Source: a virus
Lineage: Duplodnaviria > Caudoviricetes
Strand: one strand, 5' to 3'
DNA length: 61,113 nucleotides
Virus record (IMG/VR): IMGVR_UViG_3300038308_000004
Span: 1 to 61,113 of that record
Part shown: positions 41,270 through 54,687 of the stretch, piece by piece
Layout: each line of letters begins with the position of its first letter
Numbering within the stretch: position 1 is the first letter of the stretch
Position numbers and translations under genes: made by a program
The notes under the pieces: model-generated
The model's input: the letters and a program-made list of their open reading frames with translations, nothing else
The model's database searches: none
What the model was told of the DNA's origin: nothing

Positions 41270-41356
41270 GCTGTAGATTATACCAAAAGGAAAAAAGAAA
41301 TCAACCCCAAAATTATCGAAAGGATGAAAATGTGGGGGTCAGAGGAGGCACTGGAA

Positions 41357-47202: not shown

Positions 47203-47391
47203 CGCATTTTCTCCTTGCCCTGGAGCCTGCTGGTATGCTCCAGGGCTGATAATTGGTGTGCAGCGCTGATTGTCACCTGGCCTCCTGCCTGCCGCAAACA
47301 GGTGAGGCGGGCCTTTGGTTTTATCCTCTGCGGCCCGGGCTTGCCACCGGCCAGCCGCATTACCCGCCCCGGAGGGCGGTGGCTCTGCGAT

Positions 47392-48605: not shown

Positions 48606-48888
48606 ATGGCATTTCGACCTTCGAGGTCTCCTTCGGCAAGGGTCCTACCCTACAGATGCCACCAACCTTCTGCTGCGAGTTTTCGGTCTCGCCTCCTACC
48701 GGCGGGCCTTTTTGCCCGACCCCGGGGACCGCACCATTCTCGGGTCTTGGTCACTTCGCACCTGCTCCGGGCTAGTGCTGGTTCGCCCGCCCCCGTGGGG
48801 GACTCAGATCCGCCTGTCAACCCCCAGGGGGTAGAGGCCCTGCCTTCGCGTGCCCCCTGGGGTCCTGCCGCCTACGCCCATATATAGG

Positions 48889-48905
48889 TGCAACCTCCGG
48901 GCCAA
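48889..48905 (-). promoter_or_regulatory. putative sigma54 (-24/-12) promoter
   Basis: TTGGCCCGGAGGTTGCA on the - strand, with exact GG-N10-GC spacing. Confidence 0.55.
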
Positions 48906-48921
48906 AATATACAGATTTCAT

Positions 48922-49154
48922 AATTTGTGACAAATTTATTTTCTCCAATGTTTTCAAAGGCTTGGCACGTCCTGCCCATTCCCCTAGCCCACATGCCCCT
49001 AAAATATGCGGATATTTTTCTTTCTGATTATCATTTTGGTAGATGGATTGGCACGAATTTTTCAGATCTCCGTAAATGTTTATCAAATAAGGCCTTATCT
49101 GATTATCAAAATGGGAAGAAAATTGATGGAAATGGGCTGATTTTTTCATTTTGG
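48922..49154. promoter_or_regulatory. AT-rich control region: palindrome, IHF-like site, three repeated motifs
   Basis: AATTTGT-G-ACAAATT at 48922-48936; TTTCAAAGGCTTG at 48952-48964; CTGATT-(1-3 nt)-TCA-WWW-TGG motifs at 49024, 49099 and 49137. Confidence 0.5.
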
Positions 49155-49191
49155 CAAGGAGGGGAAGGGGGAAACCCTCTTCGCCCTCCGC

Positions 49192-49437
49192 CTATTTGGG
49201 GTAGATCTCTCGCGTCCGGGGCCGCCCGTTCCGCGTCTTGGGGCGGTCCCAGTAGGGATTGCGGCACTGGGGGCAAGTCGTAGGCCGCGCGAGCCGACTC
49301 CTCCATTCGTGGCCGCACCGCAGACACCGGTGGCGGCGCCTCACCCCTTCCGCCAGATCCGCCACGCAGTCGGGGCAGAGGATCACCACGCGCCCCTGGT
49401 CGGTCTCCATGCCGCAGCAGTTGCAGGTTTCCGTCAT
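49192..49437 (-). CDS. small Zn-ribbon protein
   Basis: CNCC, CPDC, CLRCGHEW...CPQCRNPYW; GGAGGTG RBS. Confidence 0.7.
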   Translation of the reverse strand: MTETCNCCGMETDQGRVVILCPDCVADLAEGVRRRHRCLRCGHEWRSRLARPTTCPQCRNPYWDRPKTRNGRPRTREIYPK

Positions 49438-49511
49438 CGCCGATCACCTCCTCTCCGCTGATTCAGATGCAATTCCTATTCCGCAAGTCGGGAGGGTTCC
49501 GCGCCCGAGGG

Positions 49512-49540
49512 TTGCCGAACGGATATAAATCTGCTATGAT
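49512..49540 (+). promoter_or_regulatory. putative sigma70-type promoter of the packaging/late arm
   Basis: TTGCCG-N17-TATGAT with TG extension. Confidence 0.5.
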
Positions 49541-49562
49541 TTTCTCAAAATGGAGGAAAATA

Positions 49563-49617
49563 ATGACCAATGACAAGCAGCCCTGGCGAAGAGCCCCCGG
49601 ACCAGCTTCTCGCCAAT
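49563..49617 (+). pseudogene. remnant 5' end of the ParB-like gene
   Basis: GGAGG RBS and MTNDKQPWR, then frameshifted GEEPPDQLLAN matching SEESPDQLLAS at 50265-50297. Confidence 0.75.
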
Positions 49618-49654
49618 ATAGCATTCATAGAATGGATATGCTATAATCTGTTCT

Positions 49655-50251
49655 ATGGAAAAGCGATTTTGTCATTATTGCAAACAAGAGAAATCAGTTG
49701 ATTTATTTGTAAGCAATCGAAAGTGTTGGGATTGTGCTCAATGGCGTACATGTTATACTTGTGGCCAGCGTAAGCATATCAAAGAATTTCCACAAGAAAC
49801 GAGTAAGGGCTGCTCAGAATGTCGGCGATCAGGATTAGCTAAACAGAAGAAAGCAGAGCGAGAAGCAAAGCGATATAGAGAGAATACCAAGGATATTTTG
49901 GCACGAAATGAGGCATGGAGAAAAGCTAATATATCACGATGGGAGAGCAAACAAAGAGAATATAGAAATCGCAAACGCATGGAGCAACGAAATCAAGTAT
50001 TAGTCCATTATGGTGGGAAATGTGCATGTTGCGGAGAATCAGAGCCACTTTTTTTAACTATTGATCATATAGATGGAAATGGTGCCCAACATCGCAGAAT
50101 GATAGGGAAGACCGATATGTGGAAATGGTTGTGTCAACAAAATTTCCCTGGTGGTTATCGACTGCTATGTTTCAATTGCAATGCAGGTCGTTATCGTAAT
50201 GGTGGACGATGCCCCCATGAAGATTCCAAATTAAATGAATTGGCAGAATAG
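49655..50251 (+). CDS. HNH endonuclease (free-standing, homing-type)
   Basis: GKCACCGE...LTIDHIDG...LLCFNCN; N-terminal CxxC repeats; AT-rich; TGCTATAAT ends 7 nt before the ATG. Confidence 0.88.
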   Translation: MEKRFCHYCKQEKSVDLFVSNRKCWDCAQWRTCYTCGQRKHIKEFPQETSKGCSECRRSGLAKQKKAEREAKRYRENTKDILARNEAWRKANISRWESKQREYRNRKRMEQRNQVLVHYGGKCACCGESEPLFLTIDHIDGNGAQHRRMIGKTDMWKWLCQQNFPGGYRLLCFNCNAGRYRNGGRCPHEDSKLNELAE

Positions 50252-50795
50252 AATTGTAGGTTATTCAGAAGAATCTCCAGACCAGCTCTTGGCATCCCCT
50301 TGGAATTGGAGGATACATCCAAAAATACAGCAGGACGCATTGAGTGCCATTCTTGAGGATGTCGGCATAGTTCAAAACATTGTCTGCAACCGCACTACGG
50401 GTCATGTCGTGGACGGCCATCTGCGAGTAATGTTGGCTCTGCGGAACAATCAGCCGCTTGTGCCCGTAACCTGGATTGAGGTATCTGAAGCCGAAGAGAA
50501 ACTTATAATATCTTCCCTCGACCCCCTGGCGGCCATGGCTGCTGCTGACAAGGAGCGCCTGGATGCGTTGCTGCGGGAGATCCCGCCGGTGGACGCGCGG
50601 CTTCAGGAGATGCTGGCGGAATTGGCAAAGAAAGAGGGCCTTTATTTGGATGAGTCGGACGGTACCGATACCATGGCTGCCGTTATCCCACAACAATATA
50701 TCATCATGATTGAATGCGCCGGCGAGGCGGAGCAATCTACTCTTCTGGAACGGCTCTTGTCCGAGGGGATCCAATGCAAAGCGTTGATATCATAA
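50235..50795 (+). CDS. ParB-like N-terminal domain protein
   Basis: NWRIHP...VG.VQ.I..N..TGHVVDGHLR. Confidence 0.8.
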   Translation: MNWQNRIVGYSEESPDQLLASPWNWRIHPKIQQDALSAILEDVGIVQNIVCNRTTGHVVDGHLRVMLALRNNQPLVPVTWIEVSEAEEKLIISSLDPLAAMAAADKERLDALLREIPPVDARLQEMLAELAKKEGLYLDESDGTDTMAAVIPQQYIIMIECAGEAEQSTLLERLLSEGIQCKALIS

Positions 50796-51961
50796 GAAGC
50801 TCCTCAATTCAACGGACTCCGCAGGTCGCCCAAGTTGAGGGCATCTTCGATATTCCTCCCTCGGCTCGCTCGGAGGAGCGATGGACGGTCAATCTGGATC
50901 TGCCCGAAAAATGGAACGTGGGCGCGATCGTGGGACCATCCGGGAGCGGAAAAACGACGATTGCTCGCGAACTCTTCGGGGTCAATCTTATCTCCGGCTG
51001 GTCCTGGCCGGAGGATAAGAGCATCTTGGACGGCTTTCCCTCGGCAATGAGCATCAGAGAGATCGTAGACCTCCTCTCTTCCGTGGGATTCTCCTCTCCC
51101 CCCTCCTGGGTCCGCCCCTTCCGTGTGCTCTCCAACGGCGAGCAGTTCCGTGTAAACCTTGCTCGCACCTTGGCCGAGATGCCCGCCCTTGCCGTGATTG
51201 ATGAATTTACCAGTGTCGTGGATCGTACAGTGGCGCAGATTGGGAGTGCGGCGCTGGCCAAGACAGTCCGCCGAAGGGGCCAACGTTTCATTGCTATCAC
51301 TTGTCACTATGACGTGATTAGTTGGCTGGAACCCGAATGGGTTTATCAGCCGCATGTGAATCAACTTGATCGGGGGCGTCTTTGGTGCAGACCGAAAATC
51401 ACATTGGAGATTCGCCGGGTGCATCGTAGTGCTTGGGGAATGTTCCGCAAGCATCACTATTTAGATACCAAACTTCATCCGGCCGCCGTTTGCTTCGTGG
51501 CTTTCTGGGAGGGTGTCCCGGTGGCGTTTGCTTCTGTTTTGCATTTTCCCCATCCCAAAGCTCCCAACGTGAAGCGGGAGCATCGAACGGTCTGCTTGCC
51601 GGACTTTCAGGGTGTGGGAATCGGCAATGCTGTGAGCGACTTGGTTGGTTCACTCTGCCGTGGACTTGGTTGCCGCTATGTCTCGATCACTTCTCATCCA
51701 GCCATGATCCAGACTCGCAATCGTTCTCAGAACTGGCGGATGTATTCGAGACCAACTCATCAAGGCAAGACGCTCCCCAATGCCCCAAGAGGATTCGCAG
51801 TTTCGATGAAGAATGGCGGAAGCAGTGGTTGTAGCAAAGGTCACTCCATGCGTCTGCGAGCAAGCTTTGAATATGTGGGTCCCGCGATGGATCAAGTTTT
51901 GGCGAGAGCGCTATGGAGCGGTGCTGAGATTCCGACTGCAGCACTCCAAGCACCTTCCTAA
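50774..51961 (+). CDS. ABC-type ATPase fused to a GNAT-like acetyltransferase
   Basis: GPSGSGKT, LSNGE, IDEF, CH; C-terminal KHHYL...RTVCLPDFQGVGIG. Confidence 0.88.
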   Translation: MQSVDIIRSSSIQRTPQVAQVEGIFDIPPSARSEERWTVNLDLPEKWNVGAIVGPSGSGKTTIARELFGVNLISGWSWPEDKSILDGFPSAMSIREIVDLLSSVGFSSPPSWVRPFRVLSNGEQFRVNLARTLAEMPALAVIDEFTSVVDRTVAQIGSAALAKTVRRRGQRFIAITCHYDVISWLEPEWVYQPHVNQLDRGRLWCRPKITLEIRRVHRSAWGMFRKHHYLDTKLHPAAVCFVAFWEGVPVAFASVLHFPHPKAPNVKREHRTVCLPDFQGVGIGNAVSDLVGSLCRGLGCRYVSITSHPAMIQTRNRSQNWRMYSRPTHQGKTLPNAPRGFAVSMKNGGSSGCSKGHSMRLRASFEYVGPAMDQVLARALWSGAEIPTAALQAPS

Positions 51962-51973
51962 CAGGGACTTTCC

Positions 51974-52537
51974 ATGAAACAACGCGGTGGCCCGCCCAAA
52001 ATTCAAAGCAAATCCGAAAAAGAAGAGCGCCTAGCTCTGGTCTGGCGGCTCTGGAACCGGGGCCGGACGCAGTTCGAGATCGCCAAAGAGGTCGGTATCA
52101 GCGATCGTCAGGTTAGATATGACCTGAAAACTTTGGAGATTCGCTGGCGCCAGGAATCCAGCGCCGGCATCGCCGCCCACAAAGAGCGCCAGCTCGCCCG
52201 CAACGAGGAGATCTTCCGTGAGAACTGGTCCGCGTGGCTCCGCAGCCTGGAGGAGAAGCTCACCACCGCGACCGAGCAGAGCGACGACTCCGGCGGCAAG
52301 GGCCACAAGAAGGCCAGTCTCAAGCGCGAGCAGAAGGAGGGCAATCCTGCCTTCCTCGCAGGGGCCGCCGCTGCCATAGAGCGCCACTGCAAGATCCTGG
52401 GCATCCCCATGACCACCTTGAGCCTCGCCAACCTCCCTACGGAGGAGCTGATTCGCCTTGCGCAGACCGTCTTTGGCGCCGTCCCCGGAGCTGAATCAGG
52501 CACTCCAGGCCAACTTGCCCTGCCGGAGGAGGATTGA
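51974..52537 (+). CDS. putative terminase small subunit (HTH)
   Basis: TQFEIAKEVGISDRQVRYDL; GNPAFL; upstream of terL. Confidence 0.65.
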   Translation: MKQRGGPPKIQSKSEKEERLALVWRLWNRGRTQFEIAKEVGISDRQVRYDLKTLEIRWRQESSAGIAAHKERQLARNEEIFRENWSAWLRSLEEKLTTATEQSDDSGGKGHKKASLKREQKEGNPAFLAGAAAAIERHCKILGIPMTTLSLANLPTEELIRLAQTVFGAVPGAESGTPGQLALPEED

Positions 52538-52834: not shown

Positions 52835-54424
52835 ATGCGCATGCCGACCTTGACCCCAGACCTGATCCAGAACCTGCGCCAGGCCCTGCCCCGAGAGATC
52901 GAGGCCGAGCTCGCCAGGCGTGGCCTCTCCATCCCCCAGGCCCTGGCCCACCGGGAGGGCCCTGCGCGATCGGCCTTCGCTCAGTCCCTCCTCCAATTCC
53001 GCGCAGGCGAGATCTACCCCGACGAGATGCTCAGGCGTTGCGAGGAGCAGCTTGGCCTCAAACTCCCCACCGAGCCCGTTTGCAGCAACCACCAGGCGCC
53101 GGGGCAGTATTTTCTAGACTCCATTTCCAGCAGGGACGGCGGCCAGCCCATTGTCTGTGCCTGCAGGAGCGGGGGCAAGACCGAGCTCACGGCGTTGATC
53201 GCCCTCATCGAATCCGTGGCCTATAGTGACTGTGGCACGCGGATACTGGGTGGCAGCGAGACTCAGAGTCTGGGGCTCTATGAGCATCTCACGGAGTTCA
53301 TCAAGCATGGTGACCTCTATGATTTGCTCGACGGCGAGCCGCTGACGACGCGGGTGAAATTCAAAAACGGTAGCCGTGCACGCATCCTAGCCGCAAGCCA
53401 AAGAAGTGTCCGCGGCCCCCATGTGCCGCGCTTGATCCTGGACGAAGTTGATGAGATTGAGCCCGAGATCTACCGGGCGGCGTTGCCGATCCTGACATCC
53501 ACATCTGACATCCCGGGCACGCTAAGAATCCTCTCGACCATGAACCGGCCCGATGGCCTGATGGGCCAGATCATGGAGGAGGGCGTTGACGCCGGCCGAC
53601 AGTTCTATACCTGGTGCGTTTTCGATGTCATGGAGCGATGCGAGGGTCGGGACTGCAGCAAGTGCGTGCTCTGGGAGGACTGCCAGGGCAAGGCCCAGCG
53701 GGCCAACGGCTATTACAAGGTCGATGACGCCGTCAAACTCCGCACCGCTCCCGGCTTCTGCCGCGAAGACTGGGAAAGCCAGATGCTGTGTTTGAAACCC
53801 GGACACAAGAGCTTGATCTGGTCCGGCTATAACGAGCAATTTCACCTATATACCCCCCCTGCAGACTTCGACTTTCGAGAGTTCCGCAAGACCCTGCGTC
53901 GGGTTCTGGCTGGGGTGGACTGGGGCTATGAGAACCCTGCCACCATTATTGTTGTAGGCGAGGACAGCAGGGGCAGATTGTGGGCAATAGAAGAATTCTA
54001 TAAAGCACATATTTTGGATGAAGATCTGGGGGAGGAAGCCAAGCTCCTGCACGATAAGTGGGGCATAGAGATGTTTTATTGTGACCCCGAGGATGCGGGC
54101 GCGATCGCAAAATGGCGACGCCCCCCCCTGAGCCTCCCTGTGCGCAGGGCGAAAAATGCCGTGGAGAAGGGAATCTCCGCCGTGGCCTCCCGCTTCCAGT
54201 TGCTGCCGCCCCACAACCTGCCCAGGATCTACATCTTCAACTCCTTGACCAATTTACGCCGGGAGATCAAAGGCTATCGGCGGCGGGGCGACGGTGTGCG
54301 CAGTTCCAGTCTACGGGGGGATAAGGCCAAGGAGGACATCATCAAGAAAAATGATCATGGTTGCGACGCCTTCAGGTATGTTATAATGGCGTTTGATCGG
54401 CCGGGATATGCGGGGGGGTATTGA
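52835..54424 (+). CDS. terL: terminase large subunit
   Basis: CRSGGKT, VRGPH, LILDEVD, LST, GVDWG, YCDP, DHGCDAFRY. Confidence 0.93.
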   Translation: MRMPTLTPDLIQNLRQALPREIEAELARRGLSIPQALAHREGPARSAFAQSLLQFRAGEIYPDEMLRRCEEQLGLKLPTEPVCSNHQAPGQYFLDSISSRDGGQPIVCACRSGGKTELTALIALIESVAYSDCGTRILGGSETQSLGLYEHLTEFIKHGDLYDLLDGEPLTTRVKFKNGSRARILAASQRSVRGPHVPRLILDEVDEIEPEIYRAALPILTSTSDIPGTLRILSTMNRPDGLMGQIMEEGVDAGRQFYTWCVFDVMERCEGRDCSKCVLWEDCQGKAQRANGYYKVDDAVKLRTAPGFCREDWESQMLCLKPGHKSLIWSGYNEQFHLYTPPADFDFREFRKTLRRVLAGVDWGYENPATIIVVGEDSRGRLWAIEEFYKAHILDEDLGEEAKLLHDKWGIEMFYCDPEDAGAIAKWRRPPLSLPVRRAKNAVEKGISAVASRFQLLPPHNLPRIYIFNSLTNLRREIKGYRRRGDGVRSSSLRGDKAKEDIIKKNDHGCDAFRYVIMAFDRPGYAGGY

Positions 54425-54687
54425 TGAAAGAGAATAATGAAATTATGCAGGATATTGTGAATGATCCCACCAGAAGAATAGCATTTCGAGACATGATGGC
54501 CAGAGCCCTTTATGCTGAGTATTGCAAAAGTGAAAGTCTTTATATCAGGGACGATATAAGCATTAGAACTGCCTGGGCGGCAGATGGACGAAACCGTAAA
54601 ATGTGGACAGAACGGGCAGAGAGAGTATTGATAGAATTAGTGCAGGCATGTTATAATGGCGTTTGATAAGCCAGGATATGCGGGGGG
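54373..54687. repeat. 45-bp imperfect direct repeat of the terL 3' end
   Basis: CAGGYATGTTATAATGGCGTTTGAT...GGATATGCGGGGGG at 54373-54417 and 54643-54687. Confidence 0.88.
54421..54666 (+). CDS. AT-rich hypothetical protein (moron-like)
   Basis: Lies between the two repeat copies. Confidence 0.55.
   Translation: MMKENNEIMQDIVNDPTRRIAFRDMMARALYAEYCKSESLYIRDDISIRTAWAADGRNRKMWTERAERVLIELVQACYNGV

Follow-up and report, generated by a model that had tools for sequence, protein, structure and literature searches.

How can an endonuclease gene lie within the reading frame of a conserved phage gene when that gene still encodes its full-length product? To our knowledge, homing endonuclease genes are thought to persist in essential genes only by means of introns or inteins and, rarely, by gene splitting. 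The question is raised by IMG/VR record IMGVR_UViG_3300038308_000004, a 61,113-bp provirus of a tailed phage that was analyzed over its whole length (hereafter the window) and whose map includes a tape-measure protein, replication genes, a portal, a Mu-F-like protein (PF04233) and a major head protein. At one locus, an open reading frame (ORF) encoding an HNH endonuclease separates the native start of a ParB-like gene from the rest of it, and a second gene start follows the HNH ORF. A sequence-only reading of this DNA had described a splicing-free cassette inserted within a conserved gene, which it repairs with a new 5' end. Our analysis points the same way: the insert is probably a free-standing homing-endonuclease cassette that targets a conserved LLAN/P site of the ParB-like gene (the slash marks the point of insertion) and co-transfers the 5' codons of its donor.

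On the plus strand, the locus is arranged as a promoter-like site, the remnant of the native gene start, 37 nt, the HNH ORF, the ParB-like ORF, an ABC-ATPase/GNAT protein, a TerS-like helix-turn-helix protein and TerL (Table 1). The insert sits between the Asn codon of ..PDQLLAN and the next Pro or Pro-Ala codons, that is, between the invariant A20 and the invariant N24-W25-R26-x-H28 of ParB. It opens with a 37-nt leader that contains an extended -10 box, continues with the HNH ORF and closes with a duplicate of ParB codons 1-21, which overlaps the HNH 3' end in the +1 frame. Because the inserted codons 1-21 join in frame to the body of the gene, ParB is intact without intron or intein. The resulting ORF (50235-50795, plus strand, 186 aa) begins MNWQNRIVGYSEESPDQLLASPWNWRIHPK and overlaps the HNH stop by 17 nt; its product matches ParB-like and methylase N-terminal PHROGs and keeps all invariant columns of the family alignment (A3). 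At gathering score, Rfam detected no intron RNA in 49.5-50.4 kb, and the whole window gave only one tRNA and one twister ribozyme. Since there is no intron match and the HNH ORF, bounded by stops, is out of frame with ParB, the HNH gene is neither intron- nor intein-borne.

Upstream of the insert, the native gene start survives in damaged form. After the native start, the next frame reads ..PGEEPPDQLLAN and ends at 49617, with EEPPDQLLAN at 49588-49617. A profile restricted to 8 HNH-less relatives (their first 34 aligned residues) gave 13.2 bits for 49585-49620 (E 0.0099 among all 2370 six-frame window fragments; runner-up 6.5 bits). EEPPDQLLAN in the remnant and EESPDQLLAS in the downstream copy are identical at 19 of 30 nt. 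At the junction within the remnant, the window reads CCC TGG CGA AGA GCC where relatives read W-R-N-R-I-V-G-x-G-E-E; the first frame is correct through TGG CG and the next frame is correct from GGC GAA. One 23-nt deletion between two GGCG(A) repeats (TGG CG. /.GGC GA) therefore accounts for both the frameshift and the missing RNRIVGxG. This agrees with the microhomology deletion at TGGCGA, with loss of the NRIVG segment, that the sequence-only reading had proposed. Its descriptive statements also checked out at the coordinates claimed: a GC-rich remnant with promoter, ribosome-binding site (RBS), MTNDKQPWR and out-of-frame GEEPPDQLLAN, and an intact gene that overlaps the HNH stop and restarts in AT-rich codons (here measured as a 17-nt overlap from 50235 and, for codons 1-21, a GC content at third codon positions, GC3, of 0.38).

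Relatives of the ParB-like gene were collected from IMG/VR as one set of 9 loci plus the best 80 of 392, and a further set of 31 related loci was compared. The HNH was found in none of them: 0/9 and 0/80 within the fetched flanks, its absence in the 80 loci being judged by tblastn at E up to 0.01 with 1.8 kb of flank on each side, and 0/31 in the further set. HNH-less relatives instead carry a single contiguous N-terminus, ..WRNRIVGxGEExPDQLLANPxNWRIHPK, exemplified by ..QEKGWRNRIVGTGEEAPDQLLANPANWRIHPK in L001 and L002. This is the contiguous WRNRIVGxGEExPDQLLANP predicted for phages lacking the HNH, and a second N-terminal copy of at least 10 bits, which the earlier reading had named as fatal to it, was present in 0 of the 80 loci. 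Secondary N-terminal matches in four loci (L322, L270, L288 and L291; 7-9 bits) looked like noise on inspection, and a minus-strand WRSRIVG match in L220 and L221 was rejected as a remnant, the remainder of the motif being missing.

The same layout is found in a second carrier, L011, a phage record that is complete at 65.8 kb, has terminal repeats and is the sole other one in IMG/VR with a close HNH (62% identical to that of the window over 189 residues). Each of the two records holds a single copy of the HNH. In L011, the Asn codon of a short ORF starting MTSTWNNQEHLLANPA.. (LLANPA) ends 37 nt ahead of the HNH ATG, exactly as in the window, and a ParB-methylase gene starting MSSWQSRIVGSGTEEPGQLLANPRNWR overlaps the HNH in the +1 frame; the insert measures ~665 nt, against ~680 nt in the window. 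As LLANP occurs at 1.3e-6 per six-frame position in 244 unrelated loci, its presence at the exact homologous position in L011 is not due to chance. The insertion site is thereby common to two phages that are otherwise unrelated by TerL BLASTP (E 5.9), and the ParB N-domains of the two are 49% identical. Conservation is thus higher in the HNH than in its host gene, and the HNH is tied to the ParB start and not to a terminase type. Together with the interruption of a contiguous gene in the window, the recurrence in L011 supports the claim that the HNH inserted within a conserved gene and repaired it with a new 5' end.

Additional instances were sought among protein homologs, which adds one protein to the two DNA loci. 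P0007 (60% HNH identity) begins ..DGWRNRIVGEGMEAPDQL, a ParB N-terminus (..WRNRIVGEGMEAPDQL) fused in frame and leading into the second zinc module; the ParB profile scores this N-terminus at 25.9 bits (E 5.5e-8) and the fusion point is ..PDQL. Within their last 25 residues, P0013, P0016 and P0022 could be encoded by DNA that reads W[RQKA][NS]RI[VI] in the +1 frame; the same is true of the control P0002, the L011 protein. Over 120 proteins, 8 of 22,427 7-mers pass this test, namely the four tails (P0002 included) and four internal sites of distant members, and the shuffled rate is 2e-4 per 7-mer. The tails of P0013, P0016 and P0022 are compatible with an overlapping ParB start.

Table 1. Features of the HNH/ParB-like locus and its neighborhood in the window.
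Feature	Position	Strand	Remarks
Promoter-like site of the original ParB-like gene, TTGCCG-17-TATGAT with TG before -10	49512..49540	+	sole sigma-70-like site called in 49100-50900
Original RBS GGAGGA (49552-49557) and start ATG 49563 (MTNDKQPWR)	49552..49589	+	deletion junction TGGCGA 49584-49589
Frameshifted second half of remnant, GEEPPDQLLAN	49585..49617	+	ends at Asn codon where insert begins; GC3 0.69
37-nt left end of insert with extended -10 box TGCTATAAT (49639-49647)	49618..49654	+	equal length in L011
HNH endonuclease gene, 198 aa	49655..50251	+	two zinc modules CxxC..CxxC (1-60), helical hairpin (61-119), HNH core (120-190)
Mini-ORF ATG AAG ATT CCA AAT TAA	50217..50234	+	ParB frame, abuts ParB ATG
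Insert-borne replacement 5' end, ParB codons 1-21 (MNWQNRIVGYSEESPDQLLAS)	50235..50297	+	GC3 0.38; EESPDQLLAS 50268-50297
Rest of intact ParB-like gene (ParB/Srx N-terminal domain)	50298..50795	+	phrog_620, phrog_498
ABC-type ATPase and GNAT acetyltransferase protein	50774..51961 (start also given as 50714)	+	phrog_11143, E 6.7e-100
TerS-like gene	51974-52537	+	
TerL	52835-54424	+	

Base composition sets the insert apart from its surroundings. GC content drops from 0.67-0.73 at 49150-49450 to 0.35-0.45 at 49600-50400, and GC3 is 0.29 in the HNH gene and 0.38 in the new ParB codons 1-21, compared with 0.69-0.78 in the remnant and 0.74-0.82 in five reference genes (TerS-like, TerL, portal, major capsid protein and tape-measure protein). 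In L011, GC3 is 0.73 in the HNH gene and 0.77 in the first 35 ParB codons, versus 0.90-0.93 in the rest of the gene and its neighbors. The window's remnant is thus native in composition. At both loci, the HNH and the adjoining ParB 5' codons are lower in GC3 than what surrounds them, and the HNH is sporadic, being absent from the related ParB-like loci. This foreign composition and the identity contrast between HNH and host gene can be taken as signs of horizontal transfer with co-conversion of flanks. In the window, GC3 remains low (0.42-0.5) up to about ParB codon 48, beyond the duplication, and these codons probably represent a co-conversion tract without a sharp right edge. The replacement N-terminus had earlier been called recoded. 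A substitute 5' end is indeed present, but purpose-built recoding did not hold up, since the new end closely resembles HNH-less N-termini (L259) and the low GC3 exceeds the duplication. It looks more like the ParB start of the previous host, dragged along between the HNH and the presumed cut site.

These features can be accommodated by a simple homing scheme. The HNH would cut HNH-less ParB alleles at or near the LLAN/P(A)NWR codons, in keeping with the conserved coding sites that are a typical choice of homing endonucleases, as reported in the part of PMC2988022 available to us. The right end of the break would then invade the donor ParB body, and repair synthesis would copy codons 1-21, the HNH and the leader, after which the left end would join through the donor's own remnant or by microhomology. 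Because the HNH is separated from the site by codons 1-21, copying the HNH copies them as well, which would explain a donor-like replacement end; repair that copies donor sequence beyond the HNH would likewise explain the low GC3 up to about codon 48. The recipient's own 5' end, severed at the break, would become the new remnant at each transfer. The new allele might be made immune by its donor-type site sequence, TGG AGG instead of TGG CGN: the Arg codon of NWR is AGG in both HNH-bearing alleles, while among the 55 parsable of the 80 HNH-less loci AGG is found in none, CGN in 51 and AGA in 4, which makes AGG a candidate for the change that confers immunity. A single origin is probable, through one-sided illegitimate break repair starting from an HNH just upstream of ParB. 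Such an event would have copied the HNH into a genome that offered no upstream homology, joined it at the break and given the element its own left homology arm. In T4 intron homing with one-sided homology, the other junction forms at microhomology, which has been proposed as a route to new sites (PMC2988022, same part); that is a laboratory observation on introns, and the same part mentions no natural element of such a build, whereas here the process is a candidate origin of a remnant-plus-insert structure.

A gene placed in this position has to be expressed, and so does the gene that it displaced. The box TGCTATAAT ends 7 nt ahead of the HNH ATG with no Shine-Dalgarno sequence in between, as had been noticed previously, and a TGnTAnnnT box stands 7 nt before the HNH ATG in both carriers (TGCTATAAT in the window and TGGTATGTT in L011). 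The motif TGNTATAAT has 4 copies in the 61 kb against 0.55 expected, a number reached in 0 of 100 shuffles. Given a box that close to the ATG and no Shine-Dalgarno sequence in either carrier, a leaderless or near-leaderless HNH transcript fits the sequence. In the window, termination-reinitiation from the old RBS via the frameshifted remnant ORF is a possible alternative, because this ORF stops 8 nt before the HNH ATG, its frame-A stop, TAA at 49644-49646, falling within the box; L011 has no such remnant stop. The other three perfect TGNTATAAT extended -10 boxes are at 41277-41285 (minus strand), 54379-54387 and 54649-54657 (both plus strand), two of them flanking small ORFs just after TerL.

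Translation of ParB is probably coupled to that of the HNH. The ATG of the five-codon mini-ORF in front of ParB aligns with the L011 ParB start codon, and the window has 15 extra nt including a stop, which suggests a shift of the start codon after insertion with possible termination-reinitiation. In L011, GGGAGGTG is found 5 nt before the ParB ATG. As for the ParB-like protein itself, its N-domain is fused to a DNA methyltransferase in many relatives (L003, L005, L007, L008 and L011, and GenBank phages H26-H29), the window form being a stand-alone protein of 186 aa. Homologs in cultured Stenotrophomonas and Xanthomonas phages carry the annotation DNA methylase or sulfiredoxin.

The 198-aa product of the inserted gene matches phrog_2255, 'HNH endonuclease' (E 4.6e-12), and phrog_4234 (E 2.5e-6). 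In an alignment with 19 relatives, C123, C125, C126, H138 (in DH), H146, C172, N174, C175, N176 and H188 are invariant in all 20 sequences; they correspond to the Cys pairs and the His/Asn positions of an HNH metal finger and presumably have catalytic roles. An AlphaFold2 model (pLDDT, the predicted local distance difference test, 91.2) shows a pair of small zinc modules followed by a long helical hairpin and, at the C terminus, a beta-beta-alpha unit. Foldseek gave no match to this model at E up to 0.001, its weak top rows being mostly HNH nucleases. We base a putative membership in the HNH (beta-beta-alpha-Me) endonuclease superfamily on the PHROG profiles and the motifs.

Close relatives of this protein are rare. 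A large protein set held 125 HNH relatives, few of them close, and a 20-relative profile found 27,647 representatives at E up to 0.001. Among 160 and 73 listed loci of more distant HNH relatives, ParB adjoins the HNH only in the contig of L011, and the ParB association is specific to this HNH subfamily. A single-protein scan of viral contigs returned no HNH relative; when profiles were run instead, with the best 80 of 539 relatives kept and P0018 and P0007 added as queries, a close relative came only from the contig of L011. Among GenBank phages, 33 records match the catalytic half only, at 31-53% identity, and 0 of the 33 cover 80% of the query. In the wider HNH family (P0122-P0267), many proteins have two to four matched stretches, i.e. 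tandem HNH domains in one protein (P0193, P0167, P0236 and P0245).

Several observations weigh against a targeted cassette. Only two DNA instances of the architecture were read, the window and L011, and the L011 remnant is too decayed for the profile, its identification relying on LLANPA at the exact homologous position. A set of 147 further representatives yielded no new ParB fusion or tail overlap, only internal matches at background rate. The matches listed in a metagenome scan were all distant HNHs, with partial alignments of no more than 59% identity and none of them beside ParB, and a degenerate GKTDMWxW pattern gave 14 stretches in genome contigs with no HNH relative among them by tblastn. 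WQ[NS]RIVG, considered as a signature of the cassette, is present in both restarts but also in 5 of 55 HNH-less loci and was discarded. The collections contain no near-identical HNH-less relative, ParB DNA identity reaching 69% at best, and the junction can therefore be located only to within ~6 nt; the nearest relative of L011 is 57% identical at the protein level. The right boundary of the imported tract is diffuse, and whole-gene GC3 is intermediate both in ParB (0.57) and in the next gene (0.58), so that low GC may partly belong to the module and not to a conversion tract. Finally, the enzyme has no Pfam HNH family, even at E up to 10, and no match to it was found when PDB was searched by sequence. 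Its structure matches by VIA-align are weak, the highest being Cap5 (Z 4.2), followed by Gme HNH (4h9d, Z 4.0, 26% identity over 68 residues), EndoVII (Z 3.0) and the phage GVE2 HNH (5h0m, Z 3.0), none at a convincing Z.

Part of this evidence could be produced by a one-off module swap, in which the HNH was merely the upstream neighbor or operon partner of ParB in the donor, and recombination replaced the recipient's start and left a scar, with neither targeting nor self-spread. Two loci read at the DNA level, an HNH/ParB overlap like that of translationally coupled operon genes, a new 5' end of ordinary HNH-less type and low GC3 reaching past the duplication are in line with such a swap. Yet two phages without BLASTP-detectable TerL similarity share the breakpoint to within 6 nt as well as the 37-nt leader, and their remnants differ in age and composition, which implies repeated breaks at one site. 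The third homolog, P0007, is fused to a ParB N-terminus at ..PDQL, and an operon partner is also difficult to reconcile with ParB genes lacking any HNH in the fetched flanks of the 80 and 9 relative loci. We regard a module swap as unlikely.

Location offers a different explanation. HNH proteins of HK97-like cos phages act as terminase packaging cofactors, and the HNH studied here, found 1.7 kb upstream of the genes for the TerS-like protein and TerL, might have been placed near them for that role; small phage-type HNH nickases (Gme HNH and GVE2 HNH) are also among its weak structure matches. The earlier reading had itself named this alternative as one that would overturn it. It is disfavored by a TerL comparison at E 5.9 between two carriers whose HNHs are 62% identical, by the lack of the HNH in all 80 related ParB-terminase neighborhoods (1.8 kb on each side), and by an HNH of foreign composition that interrupts a gene. 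Moreover, the 120-residue zinc-finger and helical N-terminal part would be superfluous for a bare cofactor, and the head module, with its portal and Mu-F-like protein (PF04233), would be associated with headful and not with cos packaging. Altogether, a packaging role appears very improbable as the reason for this arrangement.

That the structure is an artefact, either a chimeric assembly of AT-rich foreign reads or a chance likeness of the upstream peptide, is scarcely credible: GC does change abruptly at 49618 and the 10-residue self-match of the remnant is weak on its own (tblastn E 2.9), but the profile match is better than that (E 0.0099), the remnant stands directly behind the gene's own promoter and RBS, another record (L011) has the same layout, and a second assembler (Logan) gives an identical sequence for 49200-50900 (1701 nt, 0 differences). 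The Logan sequence lies in one 34-kb contig with a mean word depth of 33, one flat contig-wide figure, and speaks only against an assembler chimera, as it is probably the source run and very probably the same reads. In a search of sequencing runs, one run, probably the source, held the region and no RNA run was listed; its contigs showed no joints or variants, and X2 and X3 gave nothing.

Returning to the homing cassette, a more ambitious version of it may be put forward tentatively, at somewhat less than even chances. The insert could be a portable 'gene-start replacement' cassette, with a captured piece of the target as its left arm and its own leaderless promoter, that passes on the ParB N-terminus of its previous host and homes into any LLANP-NWR ParB-like gene. 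If so, N-terminal segments and expression signals would be shuffled among otherwise unrelated phages as a side effect. It would also add a fourth way in which a homing endonuclease can reside inside a phage coding region, the others being introns, inteins and gene splitting.

Comparison with known systems, made within the available parts of the sources cited here, places the insert closest to the mORF gene hybrids of fungal mitochondria, known from atp6 of Allomyces macrogynus and from atp6, atp9, cox2 and nad3 of Glomus (PMC3630166). As in those hybrids, an endonuclease ORF lies within a protein gene without intron or intein, a foreign gene end joins the core in frame, and the displaced native end survives as a native-looking duplicate from which the inserted copy diverges in DNA (PMC3630166). 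The duplicates of Glomus atp6 are 63.5% identical (PMC3630166), compared with 19/30 nt here. Unlike the mORF hybrids, where LAGLIDADG or GIY-YIG enzymes accompany a replaced 3' end in mitochondrial DNA and the native C-terminus is shifted downstream (PMC3630166), the present case involves the 5' end, a tailed phage and an HNH enzyme. With 5' polarity, the insert must supply translation start signals, and this one carries its own -10 box. By analogy, the insert would work like an mORF hybrid with mirrored polarity, but it is not a member of those families; relative to them, its newness lies in the mirrored polarity (5' end), the HNH enzyme and the phage host.

Phages themselves offer other points of reference. 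The intronless homing of SegF, SegG and MobE in T4-like phages likewise involves a free-standing HNH or GIY-YIG gene beside a conserved gene, sporadic distribution and co-conversion of flanks (PMC2988022, PMC2790892). These genes lie between genes, with cut sites hundreds to thousands of bp away (PMC2988022), whereas the present HNH lies within a reading frame and its presumed cut site is the insertion site, as with intron-borne enzymes. Homing endonucleases can also split a ribonucleotide reductase gene into two functional pieces (genes-in-pieces; PMC10448857, PMC2988022), and fractured genes with split inteins have been described (PMC2677866). In those cases, as in ours, a phage coding region harbors a free-standing endonuclease gene and the host function is preserved (PMC10448857, PMC2988022, PMC2677866). 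They differ in producing two polypeptides or in relying on split-intein ligation, while here translation from a substitute start would yield one full-length polypeptide and the old start is given up. Overall, the available parts of these sources describe phage free-standing endonucleases between genes, in introns or inteins, splitting genes, or with split inteins (PMC2988022, PMC10448857, PMC2677866). A literature search outside subscription journals and supplements found no phage endonuclease gene with a replacement gene start and no phage counterpart of the mORF hybrids.

The locus suggests that phages have arrived at another solution, in which the start of a gene is swapped and the old one abandoned. 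It may be a natural example of the product proposed for one-sided, illegitimate break repair, and it suggests a route by which a free-standing endonuclease could gain target homology on both sides. Homing into this gene predicts a defined cut site, the LLAN/P-NWR codons of ParB-like genes. There is also a caution for annotation: short out-of-frame 'genes' 5' of HNH genes can be displaced starts, and the true start may overlap the HNH stop.

Some features of the neighborhood deserve mention in their own right. The ABC-type ATPase/GNAT fusion also lies 3' of the ParB-like gene in L260, L267, L261 and L269, and the two form a conserved pair of unknown role just ahead of the terminase genes. A type-P5 twister ribozyme (Rfam RF02684; 54.3 bits, gathering score 37.6, E 1.6e-8) is located at 47335-47389 on the minus strand, 2.2 kb upstream of the HNH locus. 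The 1.7-kb stretch in which it lies (~47.2-48.9 kb) has no convincing ORF. Between this ORF-poor stretch and a zinc-ribbon ORF (49192-49437, minus strand) lies another AT-rich patch (48850-49150, GC 0.31-0.46) with a 110-aa minus-strand ORF that has no Pfam match; the patch could be a foreign insert or a regulatory region. Finally, the plus-strand segment 795-1898, with its lowest GC at 1100-1900, shares with the HNH region the lowest-GC 600-nt intervals of the record (0.39); it is a 367-aa ORF with no PHROG or Pfam match and possibly a recent acquisition.

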